Shown: positions 22,575 through 54,900, numbered from the stretch's first letter. The stretch: DNA of 64,000 nt from Promethearchaeota archaeon (GCA_048939995.1 JBHLOY010000003.1:192001-256000); one strand, 5' to 3'. Notes: generated from the sequence alone by a model not told the origin. A program made the numbers and translations.

Positions 22575-25157
22575 TCAAATTAACTTTTTCCAAGGTTTTC
22601 CGAAAAGCACATAACTTGAAATAGCTAGAGAGCTTTGTAAGTCAATACTTACACTTCCTTGTGAATCGCTTATATCCTTAAACTTGCTTTCAACAAGCTT
22701 AGTTACTTTATTAGCCATACATGCTTGTCGAGCTTTTAAAAGAGCTATCCCTTGGTTCTCTTTATTAAATAAGTTTATATAAAAATTAGCGTTAATTTCT
22801 TTTGTCTCATCATCAAAAATAGGATAATTGCGTGTGACAATACCGGTAATCTTCTCATAATCAAACTGTTTTCCGACTTCTCCTAAAATATGTGGAGCAT
22901 TCCTAATTTTGTTCCCATTAATATCAAAAACTTGGGTATTGAAAAATAAAAACGGTTGAATATTTGTGTTATTTCTTCTTATCGAATCTTGGATTTCTTT
23001 TATTGTAAGTATTTGACTATCATTAGTAATAAAGAAACTATCATTTGGATTCCAAGGAGAATAAAAGAGATTTCCTACAAAATGAATAATATGATTTGGA
23101 ACATCCATAATATGTGATAAGATAGCTTTTTTTGTTGAGTTTATTCCCGTAAGTATGGTTATACTTTCGATTTCCTTTACCTCATTAAAGAACTCCGTAA
23201 TAAAGTTTAATTCATTAGCGCCAGAGACAAATGGAAAAATTAACTCTTTATTTTTCGTAGTTTCATTCCATTTAAAAGGTCCTTGAGTATTTATAGAGTC
23301 AATCAATAATATATGATATTTAATGGGTGGAGTGTTAATTTCATTCCCTCCTTTTATATCCTGTTCAAAAGTGACACCACCTAAAGGTGGTTCTCCAATT
23401 ACATACCCTATTGAATATTTCAATAGAAAGAAATTATTATCATAAACTAACTCGAAAGGAATAGTCATTTGATCCAATATAAAATAGATTTCTGGTATAA
23501 ATGTTAGAGTCTCGATCTCAAACTGCTTTAATAGTTTTCTTATTGGTTTGGGAAGAAAAATGAATAATAATTTTCCAAATTCCATAAGATTAAAGTCATA
23601 TTTCTTGACTTCATGATTAGAAAAGATATCATTATAAATTTCATTAATTTGAGTATCATTCCAATATTCATTTAAAACTTTTCCATTAATTACTTTTCCA
23701 TCTTTTGACATCATTCTGTAAGAGATTAGCCCTTCTTTATTAATTCTAAGAATTATTTGTTTAATTATGAATTGATCTAATTCGAAATGGAATGATTCCC
23801 CCTCAAATGAATAAATATTTTGTTGCAATAATTCCGTCTCATGATATAATACAGCAGGATCTAAGATCATAGATTTGAGGTTTTTATCTAAAAACGGAAT
23901 AATTTTACGAGCAAGATTATAATCTTCTTCTTCAAATAATGCGCGATAGAACATTGTGCGCCAGAAATCTCTAGGTTCCAACGAAAAAAACATAGAGTTA
24001 AATTGCCAGAGATAATTACATGTATAAAAATAATGAAAAATTTGTGAATTACTCTCGGGTATCTTTAAATGATTATTCAATTTTTCAAGAGATTGTAGGA
24101 GAAAACTTTTTTCTTTCATATCAACAAAATTTTTACAAGCCTCAACCCATAATTCAATTAAATTATTGTCGTATCCTAAATCTGTTTCAGCAATAAATAT
24201 ATCTTCAAGAAAGTCATAAATTTCGAAAGCTATTTCAAACCTATTCCGCGTAATAGCGAAATTTATGTAACTTCTGATATAGGTTATAGCATCAACGAAA
24301 GATTGAAACTTTTTGATCTTTTCAAAAAGAATCTTTACAATTACTAAGATCCAAGAGAACTCTCCAATATTATTCAAGTAATAGATTAACTCTTCAAGAT
24401 CTACCAAAATCTCTTTAAAATTTCTTTCATTTATTGATACTCTACTTAACTTACCGAACTCATCCTTTAAATATCCTGGAAGGCGATTAACTAAAATTTT
24501 AGTCATAATTTGTACAAAATCAGATGAGTCTTCCACCAAATTATACTTAGAATTTATATTTTCTAAAAAAATATACAAAAACAAGGCCCTTTTATTAGGT
24601 TCTAATTTAAATAGAGTTTTTCCTAATATTTCAGTACTAAAATGAAAAAATTCTTGAGGTATAACAGATTTTCTCAAATACATTAATAGAATCTGCAATT
24701 CAATTAATTTCTGATACTCCTGCTTCTCAATAACCTTTACACAAAAAGAATTTATATATTTGGTAATCCCTTGTTGGGATAAATCATCCATTTTAATGAA
24801 TGATTGAAGTAGTGCAGTTCCAAAATTATTAAAAATATAAAAATCATCTATTTTTGATAAAAATGAAAAGAATCGTTTATAGGCATCAACATATTTAATC
24901 ATATCGATATCTACTTTTCCTTCTTTTCTTTGAATCAAAGAATTAATGTACATCCACCAAGAATTTGATATAATCATCATTAATTGATGCTTTTTCTGAA
25001 TGTCTAGCCATTCAGTTTTTTCAACCTCAAAATAAAGATCAGTTAGCAGTCTATCTGCCCATCTATGGTTCCCAGATTGTAGCAAACGCCTACCTTGTAT
25101 TACTTTTTGTTGGAAATCCTCTAAAAAAGTGCTTTTTTTATTTAAGATAGTTGTCAT
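22575..25157 (-). CDS. Helical-repeat protein with C-terminal CHAT (caspase/separase-clan) domain, catalytic residues degenerate
   Basis: GKLLF..LP, IPFELVYD..FLLKYSIG, HIIHFVGN (cf. HFxGHG), FLFFNTQ (cf. FLNAC), GIALLKARQ, SYVLFGKP. Confidence 0.7.
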   Translation of the reverse strand: MTTILNKKSTFLEDFQQKVIQGRRLLQSGNHRWADRLLTDLYFEVEKTEWLDIQKKHQLMMIISNSWWMYINSLIQRKEGKVDIDMIKYVDAYKRFFSFLSKIDDFYIFNNFGTALLQSFIKMDDLSQQGITKYINSFCVKVIEKQEYQKLIELQILLMYLRKSVIPQEFFHFSTEILGKTLFKLEPNKRALFLYIFLENINSKYNLVEDSSDFVQIMTKILVNRLPGYLKDEFGKLSRVSINERNFKEILVDLEELIYYLNNIGEFSWILVIVKILFEKIKKFQSFVDAITYIRSYINFAITRNRFEIAFEIYDFLEDIFIAETDLGYDNNLIELWVEACKNFVDMKEKSFLLQSLEKLNNHLKIPESNSQIFHYFYTCNYLWQFNSMFFSLEPRDFWRTMFYRALFEEEDYNLARKIIPFLDKNLKSMILDPAVLYHETELLQQNIYSFEGESFHFELDQFIIKQIILRINKEGLISYRMMSKDGKVINGKVLNEYWNDTQINEIYNDIFSNHEVKKYDFNLMEFGKLLFIFLPKPIRKLLKQFEIETLTFIPEIYFILDQMTIPFELVYDNNFFLLKYSIGYVIGEPPLGGVTFEQDIKGGNEINTPPIKYHILLIDSINTQGPFKWNETTKNKELIFPFVSGANELNFITEFFNEVKEIESITILTGINSTKKAILSHIMDVPNHIIHFVGNLFYSPWNPNDSFFITNDSQILTIKEIQDSIRRNNTNIQPFLFFNTQVFDINGNKIRNAPHILGEVGKQFDYEKITGIVTRNYPIFDDETKEINANFYINLFNKENQGIALLKARQACMANKVTKLVESKFKDISDSQGSVSIDLQSSLAISSYVLFGKPWKKLI

Positions 25158-25184
25158 AAACTTAAACTCTTTTTTATTTTGGTG

Positions 25185-26327
25185 CTATAAATTTGGGTTC
25201 TCAATCCAACCTTTATCTAACTTTTCTTTAGTATATAATATTGATGCACCTATCCATCCCATATTTTCTCTGCCAGAAGCCGCTATAACTTTAATTTTGT
25301 CTTTTATTTTCTCAGAGAAGTATTTTTGTAATTCAAATTGAATTCTCTTATCTAATCCAGTGATCAAACTTCCACCTCCTGATAAAATAATATTCCCCAA
25401 TAAATCTTCCCAATTTTCTCTTTCCCAGGTCTTAATTACTTTTGAAATGGATTCTGGAAGACCTATATAATCTACATGAGCAAGTTTTGGATTGAATAGG
25501 GGTTCAGATAATAGAAACCGTTCTAAATTTATTTTTAAATCAGATCCATCAGGAAGATCTATTACTCTATCATATTTCGTTACTCCCCCTTTCACTTTTT
25601 TTAGCTCTTCTTGAGGATTTAGCACACATAATGACAATTTTTCTTTAATTTCTTTTGCAATTGATTTATCAATATAGACATTTTTTGATGTGCCAATACG
25701 GGTTAAAATTAAATTCAAAAAGTAACTTGTCAAATCTTTACCGGCAATAGGAAAAACATCTCGGGCCATTATATTGGTGAAACCATGAAATATTGTAGAT
25801 ATATAAGTGTTAGATTCTCCCATACTCACAATAACCCCACTAGCTTTTTGAAGTGTGGAAAGAATAGCTTGACTTTCATGCAAAAAAAGGAGGTATGGAA
25901 ATTTTAATGAATTAAAAAATAAGTGTTGTAATTTCGATTTCTCTAAATCTGACATGAAAAAAGGAGATATGATAATTAAAGGGTGCTTAAATTGATCTTC
26001 TTTATTGATTTTTAGCTGTTTATAATAATGTAAAAAGAACTTAAGCAAAATGTTAAAATTGTGTTCTTTTTTAAATTCATGAATTTTTAGAATATTTTGA
26101 TATTTCAGTGCCTGGTGTCCTACCAAATGAGGTGTCTGATCATTCTGAAAAAATAATTCTTCTAGGCCCTCAATGACATCAGAAGAGAATAAATAATCAG
26201 AAACGTCAACATATACACTTGGAGCAATAATATCTGGAAAATCTTCACCTGCCCATCCTATTCTTGAATTTGCGGTCCCAATATCAAGGATTAAAGGATT
26301 AGTCTGATCTCTTAATTTCGATGCCAT
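25185..26327 (-). CDS. Divergent actin / actin-related protein (Asgard)
   Basis: LILDIGTANSRIGWAGEDFP, AGKDLTSY, EIKEKL, LPDG..ERFLLSEPLFNP, NIILSGGGS, WIGASIL. Confidence 0.92.
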   Translation of the reverse strand: MASKLRDQTNPLILDIGTANSRIGWAGEDFPDIIAPSVYVDVSDYLFSSDVIEGLEELFFQNDQTPHLVGHQALKYQNILKIHEFKKEHNFNILLKFFLHYYKQLKINKEDQFKHPLIIISPFFMSDLEKSKLQHLFFNSLKFPYLLFLHESQAILSTLQKASGVIVSMGESNTYISTIFHGFTNIMARDVFPIAGKDLTSYFLNLILTRIGTSKNVYIDKSIAKEIKEKLSLCVLNPQEELKKVKGGVTKYDRVIDLPDGSDLKINLERFLLSEPLFNPKLAHVDYIGLPESISKVIKTWERENWEDLLGNIILSGGGSLITGLDKRIQFELQKYFSEKIKDKIKVIAASGRENMGWIGASILYTKEKLDKGWIENPNL

Positions 26328-26357
26328 AAAAAATCTTCTTCTACATTAATTCCAAAT

Positions 26358-27107
26358 TTAGAGAATTCTTTGTTGATGAACGTACTCGTCAGCAAGTCTC
26401 TTAAGTTGATATTCTTTAATCTGCAACTCTAATAAACCTAATACTTTTTTAAACTCACTCGACATAGATTCTATGTCAACATCTGCAAGCTTCTCAACTT
26501 CATCCCGCTTAATTTTAAATTGTTCTAAGTTAAATTGAATTTTTTCATGTAATTTATTGATTGAACTAACTAAATCCTCTGTATTCTTCTTAGTGATTTT
26601 TCTCATTTTCCTAAGAATTGCTAAAATAGCTGACACAGAATTCTCCCACATTTCATAGCGTTCATTATATCCTTGAAAAAAGTCCTCAAAGAATTGAGCT
26701 AACTTGAAATAGATACTATCTTTCTTAGAAATTGAAGACTTCTTAGTAAGCTCTTTTACTGATGAAATTACTTCTTTTTCTTCTTTTACACTCTCTACAG
26801 GTTTCTCCACACTTTTCTCTTTTTCAGTTACCGTAGTTCGGTCCTTAGTTTGACCACGTTCTGATAGTGGCACCTCTTCCATCATATAATCTTCAGCAAT
26901 TTTCTTTTTAGCTTCATATGAAAGTTGAGGTTCAATTTTCTTCTCTTCTTCTTTTGGTGCTATATAACCAGTATCTTCTGAAAATGCTTTAAGTAAATCT
27001 TGTAAAGCGGTTTCAGTTTTCTTTGAACTCTTTAATGCTGTATCAAGAGTGTAACTAGAAACTGTATCTTCTTCCTTTACCTTTTCTTTTTTCTTTTTCT
27101 TTCCCAT
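26358..27107 (-). CDS. Hypothetical protein, disordered Lys/Glu-rich N-terminus and C-terminal coiled coil
   Basis: Composition and heptad pattern; directly upstream of the actin gene. Confidence 0.7.
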   Translation of the reverse strand: MGKKKKKEKVKEEDTVSSYTLDTALKSSKKTETALQDLLKAFSEDTGYIAPKEEEKKIEPQLSYEAKKKIAEDYMMEEVPLSERGQTKDRTTVTEKEKSVEKPVESVKEEKEVISSVKELTKKSSISKKDSIYFKLAQFFEDFFQGYNERYEMWENSVSAILAILRKMRKITKKNTEDLVSSINKLHEKIQFNLEQFKIKRDEVEKLADVDIESMSSEFKKVLGLLELQIKEYQLKRLADEYVHQQRIL

Positions 27108-27138: not shown

Positions 27139-27540
27139 TTATTCTAATGGAAGAACTTCTACTTTTATAGCCTCTCCTTTTTCTCTTAGAACTTTTCTAA
27201 GCTCGTCAAGATTATCTGGGCTTTCAGAAATCACTGTCCATTCAGCAGTCTTATCTTTTTCGATAATTACTGCTTCACTATACATCATACTAAGACCTTG
27301 TTCCCCAAACGTACCAGCAAGTTTTGCAAGCGCTCCTGGAACATCTTTCATAGTTATTCTTAGCTTTATTGGCCTTTTTTCATCTGATAAACCTATAGGC
27401 GTAATCTTAATTTCTTTATTTTCTGAATCAGCTACTAACATTAGCTGAGAATTCGTTGTAAGGCCCAAACTCTTTCGAATTAACTGAGGAATTACAATTC
27501 TGCCTCTATTATCAATTGTGATCACTCTGACTTCTTTCAT
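27139..27540 (-). CDS. AbrB/MazE DNA-binding domain plus ACT domain regulator
   Basis: IDNRGRIVIPQLIRKSLGL (AbrB); ITMKDVPGALAKLAGTFGEQGLSM (ACT). Confidence 0.85.
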   Translation of the reverse strand: MKEVRVITIDNRGRIVIPQLIRKSLGLTTNSQLMLVADSENKEIKITPIGLSDEKRPIKLRITMKDVPGALAKLAGTFGEQGLSMMYSEAVIIEKDKTAEWTVISESPDNLDELRKVLREKGEAIKVEVLPLE

Positions 27541-27718: not shown

Positions 27719-28108
27719 TTATTCTTGAATTGCTTTTAAATGAGCTTTTGCATTGAGTGGTAATAAAGGTGCACATGCCATGAGTTTACTAACATCTCCT
27801 TCAACAACGTATGATCCAGACATAGTTGCCTGAATTGGGTCAGATTCTCCCGAATTAACTTTCTTAATCGTTTCAAAGTTTGTCTTATGAATAATTATTG
27901 GAACTTTAGTCCCCGAATATTGACCCATTCCCCAATCCATCTTACTTTTATTAATGAATTGCCAGTAACTCATCTCTGGTTTATCAGTAATTTTATATTG
28001 AAATACCAATGGTGCAACTGGTTCTAATAGTTGTGCTAAACCTTGTAACTCATTATAGGCTTTCATGAAACGTGAAAGATATTGTTTCCATTCTTCTTTT
28101 GTCTCCAA
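27719..28108 (-). CDS. SCP2 sterol/lipid-binding domain protein
   Basis: VFQYKI..TNFETIKKVNSGESDPIQATMSGSYVVEGDVSKLM; likely TTG start at 28108 after GGAGGTGA (track ORF extends to 28261). Confidence 0.8.
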   Translation of the reverse strand: METKEEWKQYLSRFMKAYNELQGLAQLLEPVAPLVFQYKITDKPEMSYWQFINKSKMDWGMGQYSGTKVPIIIHKTNFETIKKVNSGESDPIQATMSGSYVVEGDVSKLMACAPLLPLNAKAHLKAIQE

Positions 28109-28443
28109 ATTTATTTTCACCTCCTTTATTTTTTGATTCTTAATTTTTGGTTTGTTAAAATTGATATGATTAATTATAATGCCTTTTTCACTGACTTTTT
28201 GAGTCATTAGTTCTATATCATATGTTGGAGATCTTATATCCTCTACTTCTTCATTACTCATGCAATTTAAAGGATCTATTGCTTTCTCTATTAAGAAATA
28301 TAATATATCCTATCCGAAGGGTTGAGGAACCAATTGAAGTGTAATTGAAATGATCAAATTTGTTATTATTGTAATCTCTAGTAGTTATAAACTTCATATT
28401 TATTGATTTCCCTTGATTATTTTAATTTTTAAATAGAGATAAT

Positions 28444-29616
28444 CTACATATAAGAATCAAGGCCCGCTTTACAACCCATTCCTAAGAAATCTACCATCGC
28501 GCCGTTATAGTCATTTTCGATTTTATAGTAAAGACCTTTATTTGTAAATGTAACTCCCCAAATGAACTTACTTGATTTGCTTTGAAGTGGAGTTTTCTCA
28601 ACAAAATCTTTCATTAAGGGATGTAAATGCACTGGAACCTCCTTTGGGTCATCACACGCCATCCCAAAGCACAAACGTTCTAACTCTTCTGAAGTCCAAT
28701 TAAAAGTAAAATTTAGATGGACTGCTTTACGACAACTTTCCATTATTTCGCTAGAGGCGGGCTTGAGTCCTAAGTCCTCAACAAGTGCAATAGTGCTTTC
28801 GTATAGGGATCTAGCAGGCTGCTTAAGCATAAAGTAAATATTGGTGGTATTATGCAAGAAATCAAATGCAAAAAGACTAAATGCTGTTAAACCATGTTTA
28901 TCAAAGTATTCTCTATAATTTTTCATACTTTCTGGGATTGACTTCATCGTATAAATTGGATCTATGGAACCTGGTACTATGAATGGCCAAATCTTTGATA
29001 AACCACTTGTTGCATCTATATCCACCCCATAACCCATTATATCAAATGTGTTTATAACCTCTACTATCATATCATGGATAGGATGTCCATTCTTCTCGAT
29101 TAATTTTTTATTTACAGCTGTAGTATAAGGATCTGGATTATGAGGGATAAAGAATTCAACATATCGTACGGCTACATCTCTTTTTTCGGCTGGTTTTGTT
29201 GTTGTTCTCATCGATATTGGTGCCCCTCTAAAGAATTTTTCATAAGCATTTAATGTCCTCCAAATAGCTTCTTCATTAAATGCTACTCTAGTAAAATTAC
29301 AAATAATTGAAATATCCTTTACCATCTGAGTGAGATCTGTATTGCATTTAAAATTAGATTGTACCTTTGGTAGGTATTTATCATAATTTATTCCAAGCTT
29401 TTGTAGATCTCCTATCATAGTTGGTTGAAAAGCTGGAGGGGTTACTTCAAACAAAGCTACTACTAAATCAATCTCAGCTACTTCACTTCCATTGCGTTCT
29501 ATACATTTTTTTTCCGCAGCTTCAAAAAGTGCTGGTCTTACAGCTGGTCTCACCATTTCTGGGATTCCTAAAATTACCTTCTCAAAAAGGCTTTTTACTT
29601 CTGGTTGCCATTTCAT
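28444..29616 (-). CDS. ABBA-family aromatic prenyltransferase (NphB/CloQ-like) with N-terminal DUF2621-like module
   Basis: YGVDIDATSGLSKIWPF, FAFDFLHNTTNIYF, FTFNWTSEELERLCFG, YYKIENDY follow the PT-barrel strand motifs of NphB/CloQ. Confidence 0.8.
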   Translation of the reverse strand: MKWQPEVKSLFEKVILGIPEMVRPAVRPALFEAAEKKCIERNGSEVAEIDLVVALFEVTPPAFQPTMIGDLQKLGINYDKYLPKVQSNFKCNTDLTQMVKDISIICNFTRVAFNEEAIWRTLNAYEKFFRGAPISMRTTTKPAEKRDVAVRYVEFFIPHNPDPYTTAVNKKLIEKNGHPIHDMIVEVINTFDIMGYGVDIDATSGLSKIWPFIVPGSIDPIYTMKSIPESMKNYREYFDKHGLTAFSLFAFDFLHNTTNIYFMLKQPARSLYESTIALVEDLGLKPASSEIMESCRKAVHLNFTFNWTSEELERLCFGMACDDPKEVPVHLHPLMKDFVEKTPLQSKSSKFIWGVTFTNKGLYYKIENDYNGAMVDFLGMGCKAGLDSYM

Positions 29617-29645
29617 TTTATTTTAACCTCTTCTATTTTAATTAA

Positions 29646-31061
29646 TTAATTTTGATATTTTGCAAATTGAATTTGGCTCAATTCAGCAAACCCTTCTGGA
29701 TTATTGAAACCAAGACCTGGCATCATCCATCTTGGATTTTTCTCACCATATTGCCTCAATAGGTGGAATAAGTCTGTCTCTTTAATTTGTGGTGATATAT
29801 AAAACCTAGGTTTTAGTAAATTCTCATTCTGTTGTATTATTCCCTCTTCTTCAGCAATACGTTGAAGTGGAGTATGGGGGTAGATTCTCATCCCTATAAA
29901 TATGATAACATCTCCATCACCTTGCCATAGATTTCTCTTATAGTTTTCTAAAGTTTCTAACCGATCTAACGAGATTCTAATACTTTTAAGAGTCTCTCCT
30001 GGGCCTCCAACAATAACATGTATCAATTGTTCGATTCCTAAATCAAAGCACTTTTTTGAAGTAAGAATCGCATCATCTGAAGTTCTTTCTTTATTCATAT
30101 TTTTTAACATCTCTTCAGAAAGAGATTCTATACCCGTAGCAAAGTGAATAGCACCACTTTCTCTCATCATCGGCATTAAATCAAGAAATTTTCTACTAGG
30201 AACGTAATTTGCTCCCCAGTTAATATCAATTTTTTGTTTAATAATCTCTTGACATGTTTCCTTTACGTGATCATAATTTAAGTTGAATAAACTATCTACA
30301 ATAAAAATATTTTTAATTCCATAATTGTTTATTATTATATCTAATTCTTCTGCAATGTTTTTCGGAGATCGATAACGAACATTGGACCCTTCTATGTATT
30401 TATAACTACAATAAATACAATTCATTGGGCAACCGCGTTTAGTTTGAATATTAGCCCAAATCGGACCCGATTTTTTCATAGGATCAATAAGGTATGCATC
30501 ATTATCTATTAAGGCCCTTAATGGAAAAGGAAGTTCATTTAAATTTTCAACTCGCCATGGTGGACTTTGGTGGTATTTACCCGTATTGCTTAGAAAGCAT
30601 ACACCGCGTTCAATTTTTTTGGGATTCTCATGATTTTTAATCTTTTCTAATATTTCAGCAAATACAAGTTCACCATCCCCAACAACGCCTATATCGTGCT
30701 TTAAATCACGTAAAATCTCCTCCGAAAAAATAGAAAACCCTGCTCCACCTAAAATTATTGGAATATGGGGCTCAACTAGTTGTTTAAGGTATTGAAGAAT
30801 ATTTTTAACGGGTAGATAAAAAAATAGATTCCCAGGATAAGTAGTTGAATCGACATTTCTGATCGAAAAACCTATTACGTGAGGATTAAAGTCATATATT
30901 GCTTTCGAAATATCTTGTTTATAATTATTACTTAAAGTCAAATCTAGTAACTTCACTTCATGACCTCGATTCATTAAGAAAGAAGCTAAATATGCTTCTC
31001 CTATTGGAGGTACCATCACATGGACTATCTCTCGACTTCCAGAAATTATTAACACTCTCAC
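29646..31061 (-). CDS. B12-binding radical SAM protein (class B methyltransferase-like)
   Basis: PPIGEAYLAS..GHEVKLLDL, IGFSIRNVD, ILGGAG, VGDGE, QTKRGCPMNCIYC, GIESLS, GGPGET. Confidence 0.9.
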   Translation of the reverse strand: MRVLIISGSREIVHVMVPPIGEAYLASFLMNRGHEVKLLDLTLSNNYKQDISKAIYDFNPHVIGFSIRNVDSTTYPGNLFFYLPVKNILQYLKQLVEPHIPIILGGAGFSIFSEEILRDLKHDIGVVGDGELVFAEILEKIKNHENPKKIERGVCFLSNTGKYHQSPPWRVENLNELPFPLRALIDNDAYLIDPMKKSGPIWANIQTKRGCPMNCIYCSYKYIEGSNVRYRSPKNIAEELDIIINNYGIKNIFIVDSLFNLNYDHVKETCQEIIKQKIDINWGANYVPSRKFLDLMPMMRESGAIHFATGIESLSEEMLKNMNKERTSDDAILTSKKCFDLGIEQLIHVIVGGPGETLKSIRISLDRLETLENYKRNLWQGDGDVIIFIGMRIYPHTPLQRIAEEEGIIQQNENLLKPRFYISPQIKETDLFHLLRQYGEKNPRWMMPGLGFNNPEGFAELSQIQFAKYQN

Positions 31062-31090
31062 AGTTTTTCTACCCCAATTAATCTCTAATG

Positions 31091-32488
31091 TTATTTTTCA
31101 AGTAATTCAATTTTTTTAGCCACATTAACTTCATGTTTGTGATCATTTTCATGCCAGCAGAATGGAAATGAGCCAAAGAAATCTCCAGTAATATATTCTG
31201 CAGTTACTCGACAACCACCACCGCAATATTTGAGGTGATGACAATCTGCACATTTTCCTCTAATCTTTTTTCTATCACGAATATCCTTATATAGTTGGGA
31301 ATTTAATACATCTTCAAAATTATCCTTTAGGGCATTTCCTAACGTTAAAGAGGTAGGGTATCCCGCAGGATAAATAGTTCCATCTATTCCAATACCCATC
31401 ATTGTTCTACAAGCTAAACACCCTACCCCCCATTCAATTGCAGCCAATTCCTTGTCATCTTGTGGTTGTTCCATAAACGGAACCATATCATAAATTTCAT
31501 AGGCAGGTAGTGTGCCAGCTTTACCTTTTCTTATCGTTTCAATTGCATGCTTATATTTAAAATTATACATTTTTTTATATTCTTCTGTACTAAGCCCTAT
31601 TTCATTCCAAAATTGAGCTGCTCGATTTTGTTTAACTACACATCTAAAATATGGTTGTGAACCCCATCTCTCAGATAATTCTTTAAGTTCTTCTAATTCA
31701 TCAATATTTTGTTTCATGACTGTTATTGATGAACATACAAAAATCCCATACTTTAAGCAAAGATCTATAGCCTTTTTGGCATATACTAAGGAATTTGAGA
31801 ATCCTCGTATGTGATCATTCTTTTCTGGGTCTGCACTGTCAAAACTAACAAATATGTGACTAATATTATTAACTTTGCACATTTTAGCAAATTTTTCATT
31901 AAACTGAACTCCATTGGTGATAAGAGCATGAATATAGTCTTTTTCTTTGCAAAATCTCATGATCTCACCGATATCTTTTCGCAAGGTAGGTTCACCACCA
32001 AACCATACGAAACATGCATGTCTTCCTTGTTTTCTTAAGCCCATTTCAACATTATCTATTATCTGACACCATTGGTCCTTGGATAGTTCGGATCGTGGTG
32101 CAAGATCATCAGCAGCACAATGAATACATCTTTGGTTGCACTTATCTGTAAGATACATTGCAAAATGTATGTTTCCAGGATGGAATCCTCTTTCTAGTTT
32201 TTGCCAGGAGACTTTGAGGCGATCTTTTATATCTTTCAGTTCTATATAACGCTCAACATCAATGCCTAATTTAGTTAAATCTTCAACCATCACGGGTTTA
32301 AAGGCTTTAGGGATAATATCAAAAATCCCTAAGATTACATCTGGATCATTAATATAAGCACCGTTTCTTTCAAGACACCTTTTTTCTGCAGCCTCTACAA
32401 TTAAGGGTTCGACTGAAGGTCTAAACCCCTGGGGCATCTGTTCTACTATTCGATTAAATAATAGTTGTGTTTCTTTTTCCCATTCCAT
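31091..32488 (-). CDS. Radical SAM/SPASM protein with N-terminal DUF2621-like module (paralogue A)
   Basis: CNQRCIHC, FGGEPTLR, TNG, GCLAC, CADCHHLKYCGGGCR..C. Confidence 0.9.
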   Translation of the reverse strand: MEWEKETQLLFNRIVEQMPQGFRPSVEPLIVEAAEKRCLERNGAYINDPDVILGIFDIIPKAFKPVMVEDLTKLGIDVERYIELKDIKDRLKVSWQKLERGFHPGNIHFAMYLTDKCNQRCIHCAADDLAPRSELSKDQWCQIIDNVEMGLRKQGRHACFVWFGGEPTLRKDIGEIMRFCKEKDYIHALITNGVQFNEKFAKMCKVNNISHIFVSFDSADPEKNDHIRGFSNSLVYAKKAIDLCLKYGIFVCSSITVMKQNIDELEELKELSERWGSQPYFRCVVKQNRAAQFWNEIGLSTEEYKKMYNFKYKHAIETIRKGKAGTLPAYEIYDMVPFMEQPQDDKELAAIEWGVGCLACRTMMGIGIDGTIYPAGYPTSLTLGNALKDNFEDVLNSQLYKDIRDRKKIRGKCADCHHLKYCGGGCRVTAEYITGDFFGSFPFCWHENDHKHEVNVAKKIELLEK

Positions 32489-32500
32489 TAAATTACACCC

Positions 32501-33868
32501 TCAAGAGCAACCTTTATGATTGTGATCATCATTATGCCAACAAAATGGGAGTGCTGCCAAGAAATCACCTGTTTCATTTTCAGCATGAACTCTACATCCA
32601 CCTCCACATAAATCGAGATGATGACATGTGGAACATTTTCCTTTTATTTTTCTGTCTCTAATAGCTTTAAACATTTCACTTTCCATAATTTCATTGAAAT
32701 CTTGTTTGAAAACATTTCCTAAAGTTAATTTAGAGGGATAATCACATGGAAAAAAATCTCCATTGACATCAATACCTGAAACAGAACGACATGCTTGACA
32801 TCCTACGCCCCACTCTAATGCGGTTCGTTCTTCATCAGTACGAGGGCATTCCATAAAAGGGACCATATCATAAGTATATACTTTATTCAAGAAAGACGCT
32901 TCACCTTTTCTAATAGCCTCAACTGCATGCTTATATTTGAACTCGTAAAATTGGCGATATTCCTCATAACTTAATCCAATTTCATCCCAATTTTTATCCG
33001 CTGTACGTTGTTTAATTACCGCTCTAAAATAAGGTATAGCACCTAAAGTTTCTAATTTCTTTTTAATGTCCTCTAATTCATCAAAATTTTCTTTCTGAAC
33101 TGTTGCTGTACAAATTACCAAATGTCCATAATCTGTTGCTAATTTTATGGCTTTCTCAGCTGCCTCACCTGCTTTTGGAACCCCTCGAATTTTCGCTGCT
33201 CGTTCGGGATAAACACTATCATAACTGATAAATACATGATGCATCTTTGCCTCAGCACATAGTTTAGCTAAATCTTCTGTAAATAGTATTCCATTGGTAG
33301 AAATGGCTTGGTAATATCCTTTTTCACCGCAATATTTTATTAAATCTCCAAGATCTTTACGTAGAGTTGGTTCTCCACCAAACCATATATAACACCCCTT
33401 TCGACCTTGTTTTCTCAACGTTTGCTCCACATTTTCTATAATCTTTATCCACTCCTCTGTGGAAAATTCTGGACGATGTTCATACAATCCAGCAGCACAG
33501 TGTAGGCATTTTTGATTGCATCGATCAGTTAAATACATAGTAAAATGGTAGACTCCAGGAGCCCATGCTCCCCCAATTTCGTCCCATGTACGTGCATACT
33601 TTTTCCTGATCTCTGATAGTTTTACATATCTTCCTGTATCAATTCCTAATTTCTTTAAATCCTCGATTACTGTCGGTTGAAATGCTTCTGGCGTTATTTC
33701 AAACAGCGCTGATAATAAATCATCCCGACTTACAAATCCAGAGTTCCTAAGTATTGCAGTTTTTTCAGCAGCTTCCCGTAACATTGGAGCAACAGATAAA
33801 CGAAAAGCCTCAGGAACTTGTTCTGTGATCTGTTTATATAGATTTTCTATTTCTTTTGTCCAATCCAA
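32501..33868 (-). CDS. Radical SAM/SPASM protein with N-terminal DUF2621-like module (paralogue B)
   Basis: CNQKCLHC, FGGEPTLR, GCQAC..FPC, CSTCHHLDLCGGGCR..C. Confidence 0.9.
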   Translation of the reverse strand: MDWTKEIENLYKQITEQVPEAFRLSVAPMLREAAEKTAILRNSGFVSRDDLLSALFEITPEAFQPTVIEDLKKLGIDTGRYVKLSEIRKKYARTWDEIGGAWAPGVYHFTMYLTDRCNQKCLHCAAGLYEHRPEFSTEEWIKIIENVEQTLRKQGRKGCYIWFGGEPTLRKDLGDLIKYCGEKGYYQAISTNGILFTEDLAKLCAEAKMHHVFISYDSVYPERAAKIRGVPKAGEAAEKAIKLATDYGHLVICTATVQKENFDELEDIKKKLETLGAIPYFRAVIKQRTADKNWDEIGLSYEEYRQFYEFKYKHAVEAIRKGEASFLNKVYTYDMVPFMECPRTDEERTALEWGVGCQACRSVSGIDVNGDFFPCDYPSKLTLGNVFKQDFNEIMESEMFKAIRDRKIKGKCSTCHHLDLCGGGCRVHAENETGDFLAALPFCWHNDDHNHKGCS

Positions 33869-33989
33869 CTTTTTTACCTCTTTTTGTTTTTAAAATTATT
33901 TAATATATTTAAAAAAGATTTGAATTTAGTCTTAAAAGTCAACATAATATCAGAAAAGGTGTTATAATTAATTATAATAAAATCACCGC

Positions 33990-35399
33990 CTATTTTTTTA
34001 AAAGACCATGACGTTTTAGTCCATCCCTCATATCTGCTTGAAATGCTGCAGGAGTTCCTTCGATAAATGCTTCAATAATGTCTTCATTTTCAATCTCCAT
34101 AGAAGCCCTCTTTTTTGCCTTATCTTCTGCTAATGATGAAATTGCCATCCTTGCCATAGATTGGAATTGAGGGGGTGTTAATTTTATTAGCTCGTTAAAG
34201 ATTTTAATAGTTTCTGGGTTCCACGAAAGACCTGCTGTTTTCTTTTCTTCTTTAGGTTTAGCAGGTTCAACACCAAATTCACGACTTGTCAATATCTCTT
34301 CCATATATCTTTGTATAGATTGGACATATTTAGTCGATTCGTCTTTATCTAAATATACTGCCTTTTTCGCCCATTCTTCGCAGTAATTACATTCATCACA
34401 CATCGCTAAACAATTTTGTTTCTTAAAGAATTCAATAAAACCGTTTAACTTAGTATTATCGATTATTAGTTTCGATATTGACTCTTTTCTGATGGTTTGC
34501 CTAAATCCTGCAACTGGATCTTTTTCCTGCATACCTCCAAACGAAATTGAGAACCCTTCAATAATATCTATGAGATTTCCCTCGTATTTTCGGGATGAAA
34601 ATGCTTTTACCGATCTGATAATCCATGAAGTGGGCATCATACGTCCTGCGATTTTAAAGCTATGAATTCCAATCGCCTCGTAGTGAGATAAATCTTCGGG
34701 ACGAACCCATCTACATTTTATCACCTCAGTAGGATTCGAGAATTTGATACTACTACAGTTTAAAATGCATGTGTCAATATAACGGCATTCAAACTGTTGA
34801 TAAGTCTGAGAAGCGTGTCCCAAGATATTGTAATGGTATAGTCTAAACGGACATTGGTATAAACATCCATCTGTTAAGAGCAAAACGATTTTGCATTTTA
34901 CTGCTTTTTGTATTTTTTCTAAAGACTTGAAATCTCGATTTATCATTACATCAGGGGTAATCTCATCAGCACCAAGCGATTCATAAAATTTTGCACGATT
35001 CACGCTATTAACATGAGAAACAGTTGACACACGCACTTTGAGTTTAGGGAACTGCTCCTTAATTAGTTGTATTAATAAAGGAATCGACACAATAACATTA
35101 TCAGCACCAATATCACTAATCCATTGCAAATATTTGAGCAGTTCTTTATGATAGTACGGATCATATTCCATATTATTCATACAGGGAGCGTTCAAAGCGT
35201 AAGAAAACTTCATTTTATTCTTATGCACTTTACTAATATATTCTATAATCTCTTCTTCATTGACTTCTTTTAATAAGAAGAATGGGCGACCACCTCCTAC
35301 TATCGAATGAGGAGCTGTGCCGTAGAGATCGACAACGGGAAATTTCGCCAATGCGTCTATAAGATTTGTATCCCAATTCGTTGCTACATAAAAATTAAT
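33990..35399 (-). CDS. Peptidase U32 family Fe-S protein (UbiU/UbiV/TrhP-like hydroxylase) with C-terminal DUF2621-like module
   Basis: FSYALNAPC, RVSTVSHV, INRDF, GCLYQC..H..C..C, WVRPEDL, FKIAGR; frame is open upstream of the track start 35351 to ATT 35399 (MNFYVATNWD) behind AGGTGA. Confidence 0.85.
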   Translation of the reverse strand: MNFYVATNWDTNLIDALAKFPVVDLYGTAPHSIVGGGRPFFLLKEVNEEEIIEYISKVHKNKMKFSYALNAPCMNNMEYDPYYHKELLKYLQWISDIGADNVIVSIPLLIQLIKEQFPKLKVRVSTVSHVNSVNRAKFYESLGADEITPDVMINRDFKSLEKIQKAVKCKIVLLLTDGCLYQCPFRLYHYNILGHASQTYQQFECRYIDTCILNCSSIKFSNPTEVIKCRWVRPEDLSHYEAIGIHSFKIAGRMMPTSWIIRSVKAFSSRKYEGNLIDIIEGFSISFGGMQEKDPVAGFRQTIRKESISKLIIDNTKLNGFIEFFKKQNCLAMCDECNYCEEWAKKAVYLDKDESTKYVQSIQRYMEEILTSREFGVEPAKPKEEKKTAGLSWNPETIKIFNELIKLTPPQFQSMARMAISSLAEDKAKKRASMEIENEDIIEAFIEGTPAAFQADMRDGLKRHGLLKK

Positions 35400-35435: not shown

Positions 35436-35606
35436 TTAGATTTTTTTATTTAATTTTTTTTGAAATATTGATTTTAAATTACCTTTTAATAGTGAAATCT
35501 CGTCCCATTGTATAATAAGCGGGATTTGGACAATCATTTTTCCGCCTATTGGCGGAACCATTACATGATGTATTTCTCGACTCCCATTAATTATTAACAC
35601 ACGCAT
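35436..35606 (-). pseudogene. Internally deleted relic of a second B12-radical SAM paralogue
   Basis: Translates MRVLIINGSREIHHVMVPPIG, versus MRVLIISGSREIVHVMVPPIG at 31061; similarity then stops abruptly. Confidence 0.75.
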
Positions 35607-35747: not shown

Positions 35748-36443
35748 TTAATTCTTAAACCCCCTCCCGTTGAAAATATTTGTTAGGATTAGATTATTAT
35801 AATTTTTTAAAAAAGATTTGACACGCCTAATAATTTTCAGGAATAGAATGATGGTAGAATTTTCAAATAATTTATTACTTTTATTTAAAGTAAATGAGAA
35901 TAATATATTATAGATTTTATCTTTAAAATGATAATGCGAATTATAAAGATATTCATGGTTTTTAACGTTAAATAGATTTTCGATCTCAAAAGCGTGATTA
36001 ATTAGTGGATACTTATTGATCTCATAAAAATTGAATAGTTTCTCTGCATCTTGAGCTAAATAGTAAGTTTCTTCAGATCCAGAAGCCCCTAGATACGAAT
36101 ACATTAAAATTGGATTAAATTCATCTAAACATACTCTTTTAAAATAGTGATAAATACTGCTTTGAATGTAACCAATAATATTAATTAAAATAAAGATATC
36201 AATTAAGTGCCCTAGACTAAATTGAAAACTGCTAAATGGTTCGGGCAGATACCATAGTAGATTTAAATTTGGCAAAATTGGAATAAAGAGGGAACTTCCT
36301 GTCCCTATATAATCATTCAAGAAAGAAGATATGCTTGAAATATCTCTTATAAATAAATAAAACAATGCGATTGGAATACATGAAAAAATAAAAAGTAAAA
36401 TAATGATTACTCTTAATTTATTAGATCTCTTATCATCCTGCAC
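35748..36443 (-). CDS. Hypothetical membrane protein (possibly degenerate)
   Basis: 231-aa ORF with two or three hydrophobic segments, GTG start after GGAG. Confidence 0.45.
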   Translation of the reverse strand: MQDDKRSNKLRVIIILLFIFSCIPIALFYLFIRDISSISSFLNDYIGTGSSLFIPILPNLNLLWYLPEPFSSFQFSLGHLIDIFILINIIGYIQSSIYHYFKRVCLDEFNPILMYSYLGASGSEETYYLAQDAEKLFNFYEINKYPLINHAFEIENLFNVKNHEYLYNSHYHFKDKIYNILFSFTLNKSNKLFENSTIILFLKIIRRVKSFLKNYNNLILTNIFNGRGFKN

Positions 36444-36675: not shown

Positions 36676-38577
36676 CTAGATCATTGCTCTCAATTCACTT
36701 TCAGTAATGATATTTACCCCTAATTCTTGGGCTTTTGTATATTTAGCAGTTGGTTCTGTAGAATTTGTAACTAAATAGCTGAGACCTTTAACCACGCTAG
36801 TTTTTACAACCCCTCCATGTTCCTTGATAAATTGGTGAACTTCATCTCGATTTTTAAATATTTCTAAGCTTCCGGTAATACAAAAGCTTAAACCTTCTAA
36901 TTCTCTTCCTATACTACTCTTGGCTTCCTTAATCTTTACCTTGTTAGTATTTAAAACCGCTTGCATTTCAGAATATAATTTTTTAACCCCATCGAGTAAG
37001 GTTTTTGCAGTAATATCAGCAAAACCATCAACATGAGATAGTTGATAAACCGTAGCATTTCTGATCTTATCTAAACTATCAAATCCTGCATCTATAATTC
37101 GCAGGGGCAATTCCTCTCCAATATTTTCGATATTAAATCCCGCAATAAACGTTGCTAAAGGGATTTCTTTTATGGCAAATAAATTGTCTAAAGCTTTTTT
37201 GGCTGAAGTTTGTTGTACTCCCTCAAATCGTGTTAAATCCCTAACTTCTAATTCATAGAGATCAGCAATAGTTTTCACCTTTCCTGTATCAAAAAGCGGC
37301 TTTAATATAAGCTTCTCGCTAAAATGTTTAACTCCTAACTTTCTAATCCACTTGACTAACCTGCGATAGTTTATTTTTGGACATCCTTTATTTGGACAAT
37401 ATAATCGAGTTCCTTCATTAATTAAGGGAGTATTACACACTTCGCATATATACGGAACCTTTATCTCTTTTGCATTTTCTGGAGTTCTAATTACTCTTTC
37501 AATTTTAGGAATGATATCACCCCTTTTACTTATAATAACTTCAGATCCTACTTTTAATCCCAATTCTTCAATTAAGTTAGGATTTGCTAGACTTGCTCTG
37601 CTTACAGTCGTTCCCATTAGAGTAACTGGTTCTACTATCCCCACTGGGGTGTAATTGTGACCACTAATACTCCATTCTACATCTAGAAGCGTTGTTTCAA
37701 TCTCTTCCGCTTGAAATTTGAAAGCTATTTGCTTCATTGGCTTAACTCTTTTTATATCCTCTAAATCAATCTCTGGACCTTTAATTACAAGACCATCGAT
37801 GTCAAAATTTAATGTAGCTCGAAAATTATTCATAATATTTTCCCAGACGTGAATTACTTCTTTAGACGTCTTTACAGTCTTAGTTTTTACCGAAGGAAAG
37901 CCTTGGTCTTTCAACCATTTTATTTTATCAGTCTCGTTTTTGAATACAACATCATCCCTCAGACTAATTGCATCATAATAAATTAAATTTAAATCATTTG
38001 TACCAATCCCATCCTTTCTTCGTACGATCCCTGCAGCTGCATTCCTACAATTTTGCTTATCAGAATATTTCTTTTCAAACACATCGTGATATAACATAAT
38101 TTCCCCCCGCACCGCACCAGTAAAATTATCTCGGAGTTTTGGAATAAACCCCTTCATGTTTACTACATTATATGAAACATCATCTCCAACTTTACCATCT
38201 CCTCTTGTAATTGCGTACCTAAAAATCCCACTGTCGTACTGTAACTCAATACTAATCCCATCCAACTTGAATTGAATTATATAGATGGAATAATTATGTT
38301 TTTTTGCCCATTTGGAAAATTCTGCTGGGGAGGTAACCTTATCTTGTGAGGTCATAGGGATAATATGTTCCCTTTTAGTAAACAATTCTGAATGGTCTAC
38401 TCCGACTTTATACAAAATAGGGTTTTTTGGATCAAGTTGGAATAATTCATCTTCCAGAGCATCGTATTTGGCATCCGAAATCTCTGGTGATTCGTTATAA
38501 TACAAATATCTATGACGTTGGATTTCGTTTACTAAATATTCAATTCGCTTATTTACATCTTCTCGCTGTTTAGCCAT
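36676..38577 (-). CDS. ligA: NAD-dependent DNA ligase
   Basis: YYN..ISDAKYD, KLDG, TRGDG..GDDVS, VRGE, RNAAAG, IDGLVIK, AFKF, Zn finger CEVC..C..C, HhH, BRCT (FCITGSL..GG..SV). Confidence 0.95.
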   Translation of the reverse strand: MAKQREDVNKRIEYLVNEIQRHRYLYYNESPEISDAKYDALEDELFQLDPKNPILYKVGVDHSELFTKREHIIPMTSQDKVTSPAEFSKWAKKHNYSIYIIQFKLDGISIELQYDSGIFRYAITRGDGKVGDDVSYNVVNMKGFIPKLRDNFTGAVRGEIMLYHDVFEKKYSDKQNCRNAAAGIVRRKDGIGTNDLNLIYYDAISLRDDVVFKNETDKIKWLKDQGFPSVKTKTVKTSKEVIHVWENIMNNFRATLNFDIDGLVIKGPEIDLEDIKRVKPMKQIAFKFQAEEIETTLLDVEWSISGHNYTPVGIVEPVTLMGTTVSRASLANPNLIEELGLKVGSEVIISKRGDIIPKIERVIRTPENAKEIKVPYICEVCNTPLINEGTRLYCPNKGCPKINYRRLVKWIRKLGVKHFSEKLILKPLFDTGKVKTIADLYELEVRDLTRFEGVQQTSAKKALDNLFAIKEIPLATFIAGFNIENIGEELPLRIIDAGFDSLDKIRNATVYQLSHVDGFADITAKTLLDGVKKLYSEMQAVLNTNKVKIKEAKSSIGRELEGLSFCITGSLEIFKNRDEVHQFIKEHGGVVKTSVVKGLSYLVTNSTEPTAKYTKAQELGVNIITESELRAMI

Positions 38578-51937: not shown

Positions 51938-54900
51938 TCATTTTTCTGGTGATTTTTGAGAATAGTAAACATCTTCAAGGATTTCAAGGTATTCTATCAA
52001 TACTTTACTTGCTATAGATTTTTGTTCATATGATGTTTTAATGCCTCGTAAAAGATATTTGGGAAATATTAAATCTACATAGAAGTCAGATAAAAGAGCA
52101 TAATATTCATTATTAGCTTCATCGCGAAAAACAATCATCATATGATTCTCCCAAAGTAGTTTTAATGCCGTATACGGATCTTTTACTCCCTTTACTTTTA
52201 GCTTTTCTAATTCTTGTCTAGTTATTATTGAAGTTCTTAATAATCTCAATGTTAAATAAACCTGAGGATCGCTTAAAATTTTAACAACATTCAAATTATC
52301 TTCAATCGTAGGATGATAGCTTTGAAAGAATTCCTTAACTTTTTGTATATACTCTTTTTTAAATTGTTTTGGTAATCCCCGGCTAACAGGATTTTCTACT
52401 AAATTTATAGGAGGAACTCGCAACATATAGATGTCATTAATTAAAACAATTAATTCTGAAGGTAATCCCTTAATAGAAACCTGTTTTATAATACCCATCT
52501 TTAGCAAATCAGATAGAATAGCTTCTAAATCGACAAATGTCTCCATAAACTTATCTTTAAACCATATAGTTAACTCAGATTTGATAATTACTCCCATTTC
52601 ATTTAAATTTTCTATAATCATCCGCTTAGCTTCATCTTGATAGCTGAAAGCTAGTATTTCCTCATCACTAAGCGATGGATATAAGGATAAACGTCGGAAA
52701 TAAAATGGCATAAGTTGCTTATAAGAATCATCTTCAAAATTTTCTATGAGACCTCGAAAAACATCAACCAATCCTCCCTCATAAAGATCAGGATCATCGT
52801 CAAAATTTAAAATTAATAGAAGATAATAACCTTGTTCAGGTCCTGAATAGTAAGATAAAATGTTTGAAGTTTCAGTAGTTAACATTGTTATGCCTTTTTC
52901 TCCACTATATTCATGAGTACTATATACTTGCATACAAGTTTTTTCTGAAATTACAATTTTTTCTGGATATTTAGCTAAAATTTCTGTTCCAATTCGTTCA
53001 TTCCATCTCATGAGCGCCAATCCTATAGGATTTAATTCATGAACCTTCCCTATTTCACTGATTCTTCTTTGAGCTCTTTCGCTCTTTTTCACTTTTTCAG
53101 TTTTGATATTTAATATTTGACCTAGAGAAAGACCTACTTTATTCCATTTATGATTTACTTGTTGTACAATGAACTTTTCTTTATTGGGGTATAATAAAGA
53201 TTCCTCAATTGATTTCTGCTTTTTAATAGCTTTTTTCATAGCTCTTACTTTTCTTACAAAAACGGGTATTTTAGCACGGTGGTAAACTCTATATCCAACA
53301 AGACTTCCAACTATCGCAATCGTTGCTGCCACAATTAGTAAGAAATAGAAGGTTGGAAGCCCTGGAAAGATCTCTTCCATCTCAACGACAATTATAATAT
53401 CAAATTCTTGAGAGATATAATCCTCTTTTGTAATATTAATAGTTCCTGTAACTGTGGTAGAGGTGAAAAAGGCATCAATATTATCCGTATAGAAAGTAAA
53501 TGTGTAGGTACCATTCCCAATATACGTAAAATTGTACATATTACCACCTATCGTCAATATTACTGTAGCGTTAAGTAACCAACTATCTTGTTTTGTAGGA
53601 TCCGTTAAAATTAATTGTATTGGAACTGGATTGCCTTTCACTATACTTGTTCTTCTATTTTGGAAGTTATCGCTTAAAATAGGAGTCCCAATCTCTCGTT
53701 TGTTAATTGTTAAAAGCAACATTGCATTTTTACGATCATAATTATCTTTATCTAAAGCAATAATTAGAAGATATTCACCCACCATTCGTGATTGTGTATT
53801 AAAGTCTAAGATGTAAGTATTGTCTGAAGTTGTAATCATATTTTCTTGACCACTTTCAATTACATTACCTGCTTGATCATAGCGTTCCCAAAGATAATAT
53901 TGAGTTACTAAGTTTGTAATTTTATTTCCGCTTAAAGTATCCCTATATACAAATGTAAAATTAACCGTATCTTTAATGTAAATACTTTCAATTTTTCTGA
54001 AAAATTCTGAAGACTGGTTTAATAGGGTGGGGCGATTTAAAACATTTAATTTTAAATCTTTTATAGCTGAACTGAAATGGGCTTTTTGTGAAGTAAATCG
54101 TACAGTATATCGATCAGCATCAAGTAAAGACGTATCAATTGTCTTTAGGTAATATCCTAAGCTGGGATAATATGAAGTTGTTCCATAAATGGAAGGGCTC
54201 TCAACAACAACATATGATAAAGAGCCTATTGTTTCATATGATACTGTTCGTGAATATTTAATTGAAAATTGAAGCGTGAAATTTACCTGGAAACCAGTTT
54301 CAATAACTGTATGAAAGATTTGTTCTTTAGTGAACCCTCGTAGGGAAAAGGTTCCTATACCAAGAGTAAAATCAGATACCGCATACTTTTGTCCACCAAT
54401 GGTGATATTCATTGCTAAATATGAGGGGTGAAAATAAGTTGAACCACTTTTTATTTCTTTAACCCATAAAAATGCTTCGAGTTCATTCCAATGACTTTCA
54501 CCGGCGTCTACTTGAAAAAAACCTCCATTAGTGATTCCTGATTCTATTATCGTGAGATTAAGTGTTTCCAAACGGAGGTTCTGATAAAAACCTTGAACAT
54601 ATTCAACATAGATGATTGTATTAAAGATGATATTAGGCTGACTTTCAATTGTAAAAACAAATTTGTTGCCAATAGGATAGATGAGTCTATCATCGATGGT
54701 TAAGGAACCTGTTCCATTCGTATAACCATAATCTAGTGTATAGCTAAACCCTTCGTTTGTACTAACATTCAAGGAGCTCAAACTTGATAAATCTACAACA
54801 CTCCAATCAGAGGTGTTATAGCACTCAAATATCTCAAAACTGATGTTATTAATTGTCCAACCTTCCACTTCTGTTAAAATAGATATCTCATTACTAACAT

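Follow-up and report, generated by a model that had tools for sequence, protein, structure and literature searches.

A helical domain of the DUF2621/PCP_red superfamily on four enzymes of a Promethearchaeota gene cluster, and its possible role as a shared adaptor

Here we present an analysis of a 64,000-nucleotide stretch of the genome of a Promethearchaeota archaeon (GCA_048939995.1, JBHLOY010000003.1:192001-256000; hereafter the window), in which one domain of about 80 amino acids (aa), here called the module, recurs on four enzymes of a single gene cluster: an ABBA aromatic prenyltransferase, two radical SAM/SPASM enzymes (rSAM A and rSAM B) and a U32-family protein. Judged by sequence, the four segments are paralogous copies of one mobile, non-catalytic helical domain, which in one Asgard family is carried by the soluble tailoring enzymes of a conserved cluster whose chemistry needs no oxygen; the superfamily that includes this domain is known, though uncharacterised. 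Our tentative interpretation is that the module is a shared adaptor, by which each of these unrelated enzymes engages the same partner, likeliest an intermediate bound to the lipid carrier SCP2 or a complex centred on SCP2; we infer both the binding in trans and the identity of the partner.

The three N-terminal copies and the C-terminal copy on the U32 protein lie where an earlier note, made by reading the sequence without database searches, had placed them (Table 1). Their alignment is nearly gap-free. Twelve columns are invariant, W3, E6, P19, A34, E35, R41, D50, P60, F63 and G75 among them, and identity to the prenyltransferase copy is 32-44%, as expected of one homologous domain. When each single module was compared by phmmer with all 13,727 six-frame open reading frames (ORFs; at least 50 aa) of the 3.75-Mb genome, it found only other modules and nothing else up to E = 10. 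The three N-terminal copies found each other at E 1e-19 to 1e-24 and the N-terminal and U32-type copies at E 5e-7 to 1e-3, a likeness that by sequence is far beyond chance. A profile search of the genome added a fifth copy, a stand-alone 83-aa ORF of the U32 type (P0009, contig C13), which the U32 copy matched at E 3.7e-30. It lies at L005:1483-1734, 38 bp downstream of a TIGR04190-like B12-radical SAM gene. Truncated module-only ORFs of 64 and 75 aa occur in two other Asgard genomes (L061:8277-8471 and L060:15605-15832), near B12-radical SAM genes or partial duplicates of the cluster; since these relics occupy similar places, P0009 may itself be a relic of rearrangement rather than a dedicated gene. 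On the prenyltransferase the module is an add-on, because the relatives in the PDB (EpzP, AmbP1/3, NphB and CloQ, about 300-335 aa) match only from residue ~92 onward.

The module is an all-helical domain of about 80 aa belonging to the PCP_red/DUF2621 superfamily. Resemblance to both families had been proposed in the earlier note, and for DUF2621 (PF11084) it is real: this is the best sequence match of all four copies (E 1e-5 to 2e-2). However, their scores of 15-26 bits fall short of the Pfam cut-off of 27.7 bits, which P0031, a member of the same module family, passes at 35.8 bits, and the matches cover only model positions 56-138 of 139. Positions 1-55 are left unmatched: the modules begin at residues 1-3 of their proteins or follow the U32 domain. 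They are joined to enzymes and not to a membrane anchor. For PCP_red (PF08369), the C-terminal helical domain of BchB/ChlB in dark-operative protochlorophyllide reductase, the predicted fold agrees (template modelling score, TM, 0.65-0.66) and a motif is held in common (W-x15-P-x3-R ... A-E-x2-A-x2-R-G/N), but by sequence the rSAM B copy alone matches (12.8 bits, E 0.13; cut-off 32.5 bits), and a search of the whole genome for PF08369 returned none. PCP_red also covers only the first ~45 residues of the module, its hosts differ, and the cluster encodes no nitrogenase-like protein.

A profile search of 1.84 billion representative proteins gave 284 matches at E<=1e-3, of which the best 150 were inspected. 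Twenty-seven matches longer than 600 aa were set aside as probably spurious, the consensus of their alignment (not each protein) showing TPR/STAND-type repeats; the family figures below are for 102 clean module segments. Proteins of this type (P0024, P0074, P0083 and others) cross-match through a P-x-A-F-x-P-x-L-A-x-S-L-N-N-L repeat (more fully P-x-A-F-R-P-D-L-A-x-S-L-N-N-L), which is a trap for any census made with the module profile. DUF2621 was matched by 79 of the 102 members at E<=0.01 (best 6e-12) and PCP_red by 26 (best 9e-8), and the module therefore bridges the two Pfam families. Across the 102, only W3 and P60 are invariant, with P19 and D50 nearly so, and a search for conserved Cys or His found none; a catalytic or metal-binding role thus seems unlikely.

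An AlphaFold2 (AF2) model of the rSAM A module alone (predicted local distance difference test, pLDDT, 88.8) is a bundle of four to five helices (residues 5-16, 20-40, 48-58, 61-73 and 79-82) with only two one-residue bridges. Sequence searches of the PDB with two module profiles gave nothing significant, the best matches (E 0.03-0.1) being designed and histone-fold proteins, and Foldseek of the model against the PDB gave none at E<=0.001, with histone H2B and RuvBL at E ~0.1-0.3. In VIA-align the top folds were AAA+ lid domains, namely the Rpt3 C-domain (2dzn_B, Z 8.5) followed by those of RuvBL, MCM and BchI (1g8p) at Z 7.6, together with the N-domain of DNA polymerase (pol) epsilon subunit B (2v6z, Z 6.6) and 2l09 (Z 6.5); among the rows listed there were no BchB/ChlB chains. 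The lids and the pol-epsilon B N-domain superpose on the module with a root-mean-square deviation (rmsd) of 1.3-3.2 Å over 55-72 residues and share the helix-strand-helix pattern A-x3-A-x-R-G-x3-V-x3-D; several of them are protein-binding surfaces. Z scores in this range are common for helical bundles and were not taken as homology, and the module has no ATPase domain; its predicted likeness to the small helical lids of the AAA+ family is one of analogy only. Additionally, in an atlas fold search, in which both sides are predicted models, the module superposed at TM 0.65-0.97 and rmsd at most 1.8 Å on the N-terminal parts of radical SAM and prenyltransferase clusters from Asgard archaea, on bacterial stand-alone DUF2621 proteins, on a 321-member, mostly bacterial U32 cluster, on FMN-reductase/Flavodoxin_2 and VOC clusters, and on Oxidored_nitro+PCP_red (BchB-type) and PCP_red clusters (TM 0.66 and 0.65, 63 residues, rmsd 1.5-1.8 Å). 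All module types are acidic and hydrophilic, with an isoelectric point (pI) of 4.5-5.6, a negative grand average of hydropathy (GRAVY) and a net charge of -2.5 to -7.5.

The cluster is conserved across 27 Promethearchaeota loci, where the common order is (Ta0216-like B12-radical SAM enzyme) - (231-aa protein) - rSAM B - rSAM A - B12-radical SAM enzyme - prenyltransferase - (SCP2) - U32 protein. The module is N-terminal on the prenyltransferase and SPASM enzymes, C-terminal on the U32 protein, internal in a U32-module-SCP2 protein of ~680 aa, and missing from the B12-radical SAM enzyme, among whose orthologues 0 of 21 matched it. At least 11 loci add a module-free U32 protein (~383 aa) along with the ~680-aa fusion; the cluster has one to three U32 iron-sulfur proteins. 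In one locus (L018:5158-6801) a U32 orthologue carries tandem modules (aa 374-454 and 469-546) and adjoins a second U32 paralogue with a single module. The placing of a mobile domain on three unrelated folds and at either terminus thus stands and can be widened, since in relatives the module is also internal, tandem and stand-alone.

Among orthologues the modules are 68-80% identical as against 68-82% for the catalytic domains, so the module has been kept under equally strong selection. In a tree the U32, rSAM-A, prenyltransferase and U32-SCP2 modules each form a clade with support 0.91-0.98, the rSAM-B modules do so only after one divergent paralogue is set aside, and the three N-terminal types group together. 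From these host-type clades it follows that the fusions are ancient and not being shuffled; each, as judged from the tree, is old. The module was found in 26 of 301 sampled genomes of the phylum, 22 of them in the window's own family (68 genomes), and is patchy within the genus (10 of 24 genomes); most module-bearing Asgard genomes carry 2-10 matches. All close relatives of the prenyltransferase are encoded in metagenome-assembled genomes (MAGs) of Promethearchaeota and other Asgard archaea. When longer homologues were sought by a word-based search, the only matches were U32 and radical SAM proteins of Asgard archaea, with the annotations 'U32 family peptidase' and 'radical SAM protein'.

Outside the cluster the module is fused to further folds. 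HpaB-module, module-class I methyltransferase and module-PNPOx-like proteins were found, as were two modules followed by a thioredoxin-like 2Fe-2S ferredoxin (P0134) and tandem modules in P0128; other hosts are FMN reductase, VOC, bacterial U32-module proteins and BchB-like proteins. Most of these host families have members whose substrates are hydrophobic aromatic or quinone-like compounds, or members that supply the enzymes for such compounds with electrons. The methyltransferase host is the only tagged protein of its cluster, which serves aromatic tailoring and also encodes HpaB, two HemN-like radical SAM enzymes, an amidohydrolase, an FAD mono-oxygenase and a P450. Generally the module stands alone in bacterial relatives: in the loci examined, neither another tagged protein nor SCP2 was encoded close by. 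Metagenomes scanned with P0127 and P0063, two U32-module proteins of bacteria, gave no matches. One stand-alone copy lies inside a type II polyketide cluster and others are in unrelated contexts. In a bacterial MAG (GCA_040961595.1, L048:121-1837) a 475-aa B12-binding radical SAM gene is followed, after a 23-bp gap, by a full-length stand-alone module of 88 aa (P0048); the same pair recurs on a second contig (L050), and on a third (L049) the module follows a cut-off 46-aa ORF at the contig edge. Because P0009 and P0048 each lie just downstream of a B12-radical SAM gene, we asked whether free-standing modules might partner such enzymes, and set the idea aside: there are relics elsewhere, and other copies lie in unrelated contexts.

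A second line of evidence links the module to SCP2. The U32-module-SCP2 fusion is present in 11 loci, and SCP2-module (P0144) and module-SCP2 (P0125) fusions were found outside the Asgard cluster; these recurrent fusions support a tie between the module and the SCP2 carrier. The SCP2 gene of the window (P0006) is probably a split-off of the fusion, because its first ~47 residues align with the linker of the relatives' U32-module-SCP2 proteins and the stand-alone SCP2 orthologues (128-135 aa) align only from residue 48 on, P0006 being ~48 aa longer; alternatively, the true start lies further in within 27719-28261. A complex prediction with four chains (SCP2, the B12-radical SAM enzyme, the U32-type module and the rSAM-A module) scored 0.01 against a mark of 0.32, a level at which the tool gives no answer, so this speaks neither for nor against binding; the four-chain design also departs from the tool's calibration.

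We lean, tentatively, toward the shared adaptor because the module is non-catalytic, sits on many folds and at any position, is sometimes free or doubled, and has repeatedly been fused to or split from SCP2. The cluster product is most likely a prenylated aromatic, quinone-like lipid. The module would let each enzyme engage SCP2 loaded with the greasy intermediate, or a complex around SCP2, and the intermediate would then be passed from enzyme to enzyme, much as Ubi enzymes gather around UbiJ/UbiT in the UbiJ-centred Ubi metabolon, or as recognition elements of ribosomally synthesized and post-translationally modified peptide (RiPP) pathways let unrelated enzymes bind one leader peptide. Analogy alone adds one more point in favour: binding of other proteins is a known function of the nearest folds, the pol-epsilon B N-domain and AAA+ lids (the Rpt3 C-domain, for example). 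Furthermore, the linkers of the U32 proteins (20 orthologues) and of U32-module-SCP2 are variable and K/E-rich.

Several observations weigh against the adaptor. The host-type clades mean that nothing shows the modules to be exchangeable, and two members of the pathway are without a module throughout the 27 loci, namely the small SCP2 protein and the B12-radical SAM enzymes. The bacterial relatives are single, as described above, and with all module types acidic there is no charge complementarity between modules. The earlier note had read the module as an interaction or docking tag. That a mobile, non-catalytic domain under selection sits on three folds agrees with this proposal, as do the recurrent fusions to SCP2, one of the partners that the note suggested; with a junction that looks rigid in the radical SAM and prenyltransferase hosts, the proposal is supported only in part. 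Two further suggestions of the note fared less well: module-module co-assembly does not hold as a general function, bacterial relatives carrying a single module with no second tagged enzyme nearby, and for the role of this domain of unknown function the analysis offers only a candidate, the shared adaptor.

A close precedent for such a pathway is UbiT, UbiU and UbiV, which perform oxygen-independent ubiquinone hydroxylation with U32 iron-sulfur proteins and an SCP2 lipid carrier (PMC6747719). Like that system, the window has a U32 protein and SCP2, and its relatives fuse the two and add a second, module-free U32 protein reminiscent of the UbiU/UbiV pair. Unlike it, the window has a soluble ABBA prenyltransferase instead of UbiA, its other enzymes are radical SAM proteins, and the Ubi proteins bear no shared tag. 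If the shared adaptor is correct, the widespread DUF2621/PCP_red domain would gain a role, soluble anaerobic enzymes would be seen to hand on a greasy intermediate without a membrane-bound scaffold, and genomes would offer a simple sequence flag for members of such pathways. The host cluster, which apparently encodes a prenyl-aromatic pathway that is independent of oxygen and not described before, is also relevant to whether these archaea, relatives of the eukaryotes, make quinone-like lipids. In literature searches no paper mentioned DUF2621, nothing useful was returned for PF08369, and no paper linked Asgard archaea with an aromatic prenyltransferase. A bolder and improbable version of the adaptor would make the module a carrier-recognition domain, the small-molecule counterpart of the RiPP recognition element, binding SCP2 with its prenylated intermediate and organising an oxygen-independent, quinone-like assembly line in Asgard archaea; such a principle, if true, would explain the fusions to aromatic-tailoring and redox enzymes across bacteria and the presence of the module on BchB.

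The main rival, which we regard as possible though doubtful, is that the module is an integrated domain acting in cis, packed on its own catalytic domain (or on that of the other subunit of a homodimer) where it would cover or extend the binding site of an aromatic substrate that is bulky and hydrophobic. In orthologue alignments the junction between module and core in the radical SAM and prenyltransferase hosts is of constant length and strongly conserved, and the full-length AF2 model of rSAM A (predicted TM score, pTM, 0.81) has no dip in pLDDT at the junction and a continuous helix at residues 78-96. Alignment and model together suggest an integrated domain better than a loose tag, which is a further point against the adaptor. 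The supported clades formed by the modules of four of the five host types imply long co-evolution with the host, and the single-module enzymes of bacterial clusters and the fold match to PCP_red on BchB-like proteins fit the same picture; in the reductase, the helical C-terminal region of BchB reportedly extends across to the adjacent unit and overlies its protochlorophyllide pocket. However, a cis role would need a different interface on at least 10 unrelated folds, at either terminus, and there are also free and tandem modules, as well as modules that follow a long flexible linker in the U32 and U32-module-SCP2 proteins.

Self-association, in which modules dimerise or oligomerise so that single-tag enzymes form homo-oligomers and multi-tag clusters form mixed assemblies, is the module-to-module form of the metabolon tag and strikes us as unlikely. 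It would suit the tagging of every enzyme of the window save the B12-radical SAM protein (in relatives the ~383-aa U32 protein is untagged too), the tandem copies on the L018 U32 protein, the ferredoxin P0134 and P0128, the 2-10 matches in most module-bearing Asgard genomes, and the tags on electron suppliers (2Fe-2S ferredoxin, FMN reductase). Yet it is hard to see what purpose a stand-alone copy would serve, the net charges given above make every type acidic, and the B12-radical SAM enzymes would be left out.

Those tagged electron suppliers raise a different and highly doubtful option, that the module docks an electron donor, recruiting ferredoxin, flavodoxin or a reductase to iron-sulfur enzymes such as radical SAM, U32 and BchB proteins. 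Many hosts are indeed iron-sulfur or flavin enzymes, and fusions to the thioredoxin-like 2Fe-2S ferredoxin, FMN reductase and the PNPOx-like protein exist, but electrons are not required by four of the hosts (prenyltransferase, methyltransferase, VOC and SCP2), and the B12-radical SAM enzymes, which do need them, have no module.

We consider it very improbable that the cluster is a RiPP pathway with the module as a new recognition element for a precursor peptide. The pattern is that of the PqqD-like RiPP recognition elements, one non-catalytic domain of ~85 aa on several unrelated enzymes of a cluster, N-terminal on SPASM proteins and sometimes free; SPASM, B12-radical SAM and ABBA-fold prenyltransferase enzymes all occur in RiPP pathways, and the nearest solved folds of the rSAM A core in Foldseek are the peptide maturases anSME, SkfB, SuiB and CteB. 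Those elements, however, are winged helices with a three-stranded sheet and the module is all-helical, the U32 and SCP2 pair and their fusions point to a lipid substrate, and no precursor gene was found in the window cluster: when small ORFs (at least 18 aa) were compared across the 27 loci and the window, none was shared by more than 4 of the 28, and the shared ones were of low complexity.

B. subtilis has one DUF2621 match, which we take to be YneK, and the ~55 N-terminal positions of the model left uncovered by the window modules would presumably be the membrane anchor of Bacillus YneK. YneK is a bitopic membrane protein whose N-terminal 44 residues, and not the module, account for its two-hybrid interaction with DynA (PMC3460841). 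Both points might hint at direct targeting of soluble enzymes to a membrane-embedded substrate, but with an anchor that is a separate N-terminal helix and modules that are acidic and hydrophilic, this is hardly credible.

The module-bearing genes belong to a run at 27.1-36.4 kb of the window, all on the minus strand (Table 1). The 231-aa protein is a conserved member: 21 of the 27 loci have a copy, 31-50% identical, upstream of the rSAM B gene. The 56-aa ORF between it and the U32 gene looks like a relic of rearrangement, left by a lost or rearranged paralogue. The U32 domain matches PDB 5d88 at E 2.4e-7, and the best NCBIfam matches of rSAM A are AhbD/NirJ-like, far under their cut-offs.

Table 1. 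Features of the cluster in the window, listed in the direction of transcription; each whole gene is followed by its parts.
Feature	Coordinates	Strand	Evidence and remarks
231-aa protein (P0008)	35748-36443	-	hydrophobic N-terminus; conserved cluster member; no module; no Pfam match
56-aa ORF	35436-35606	-	first ~21 residues a near-copy of the P0002 N-terminus (ORF list comparison)
U32-family protein (P0005), whole gene	33990-35351	-	
U32-family domain and linker	34233-35351	-	Pfam Peptidase_U32 E 1.8e-15; ~14-aa variable K/E/S-rich linker ahead of module
Module copy 4 (P0005 aa 374-453, C-terminus)	33993-34232	-	DUF2621 E 9.9e-6, 26.0 bits; diverged U32 type
rSAM B (P0004), radical SAM/SPASM enzyme, whole gene	32501-33868	-	TTG start
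Module copy 3 (P0004 aa 1-84)	33617-33868	-	DUF2621 E 5.4e-4, 20.4 bits; PCP_red E 0.13
rSAM B radical SAM + SPASM core	32501-33616	-	Pfam; NCBIfam AhbD/NirJ1-like, below cut-off
rSAM A (P0003), radical SAM/SPASM enzyme, whole gene	31091-32488	-	paralogue of rSAM B
Module copy 2 (P0003 aa 1-84)	32237-32488	-	DUF2621 E 2.8e-5, 24.6 bits
rSAM A radical SAM + SPASM core	31091-32236	-	Pfam Radical_SAM and SPASM; connecting helix aa 78-96
B12-binding radical SAM enzyme (P0002)	29646-31061	-	Pfam B12-binding + Radical_SAM; sole cluster enzyme without module
ABBA aromatic prenyltransferase PTase_Orf2 (P0001), whole gene	28444-29616	-	
Module copy 1 (P0001 aa 1-84)	29365-29616	-	DUF2621 E 0.021, 15.3 bits
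PTase_Orf2 catalytic barrel and stop codon	28444-29364	-	Pfam PF11468 E 2.9e-53 over aa 94-378
SCP2 lipid-carrier protein (P0006)	27719-28261	-	Pfam SCP2 E 1.5e-5; no module
AbrB/MazE-ACT protein	27139-27540	-	downstream of cluster

The AbrB/MazE-ACT protein is a possible regulator of the cluster. It is 93-95% identical in two other loci (L018 and L022), where its position is unchanged.

The window has a G+C content of about 31%. Directly upstream of the cluster, in this archaeal genome, is a gene for an NAD-dependent DNA ligase of the bacterial LigA type with OB, HhH and BRCT domains (36676-38577, minus strand). On the other side of the cluster the window encodes a eukaryote-like actin (Pfam Actin E 1.7e-48), which adjoins an 860-aa CHAT-domain protein and a family-less protein of 249 aa (22575-27107, minus strand). 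Further off, also on the minus strand, a giant ORF of 2664 aa with Laminin_G_3 and DUF2341 domains is followed by a 1293-aa ORF without Pfam match (51938-59932).

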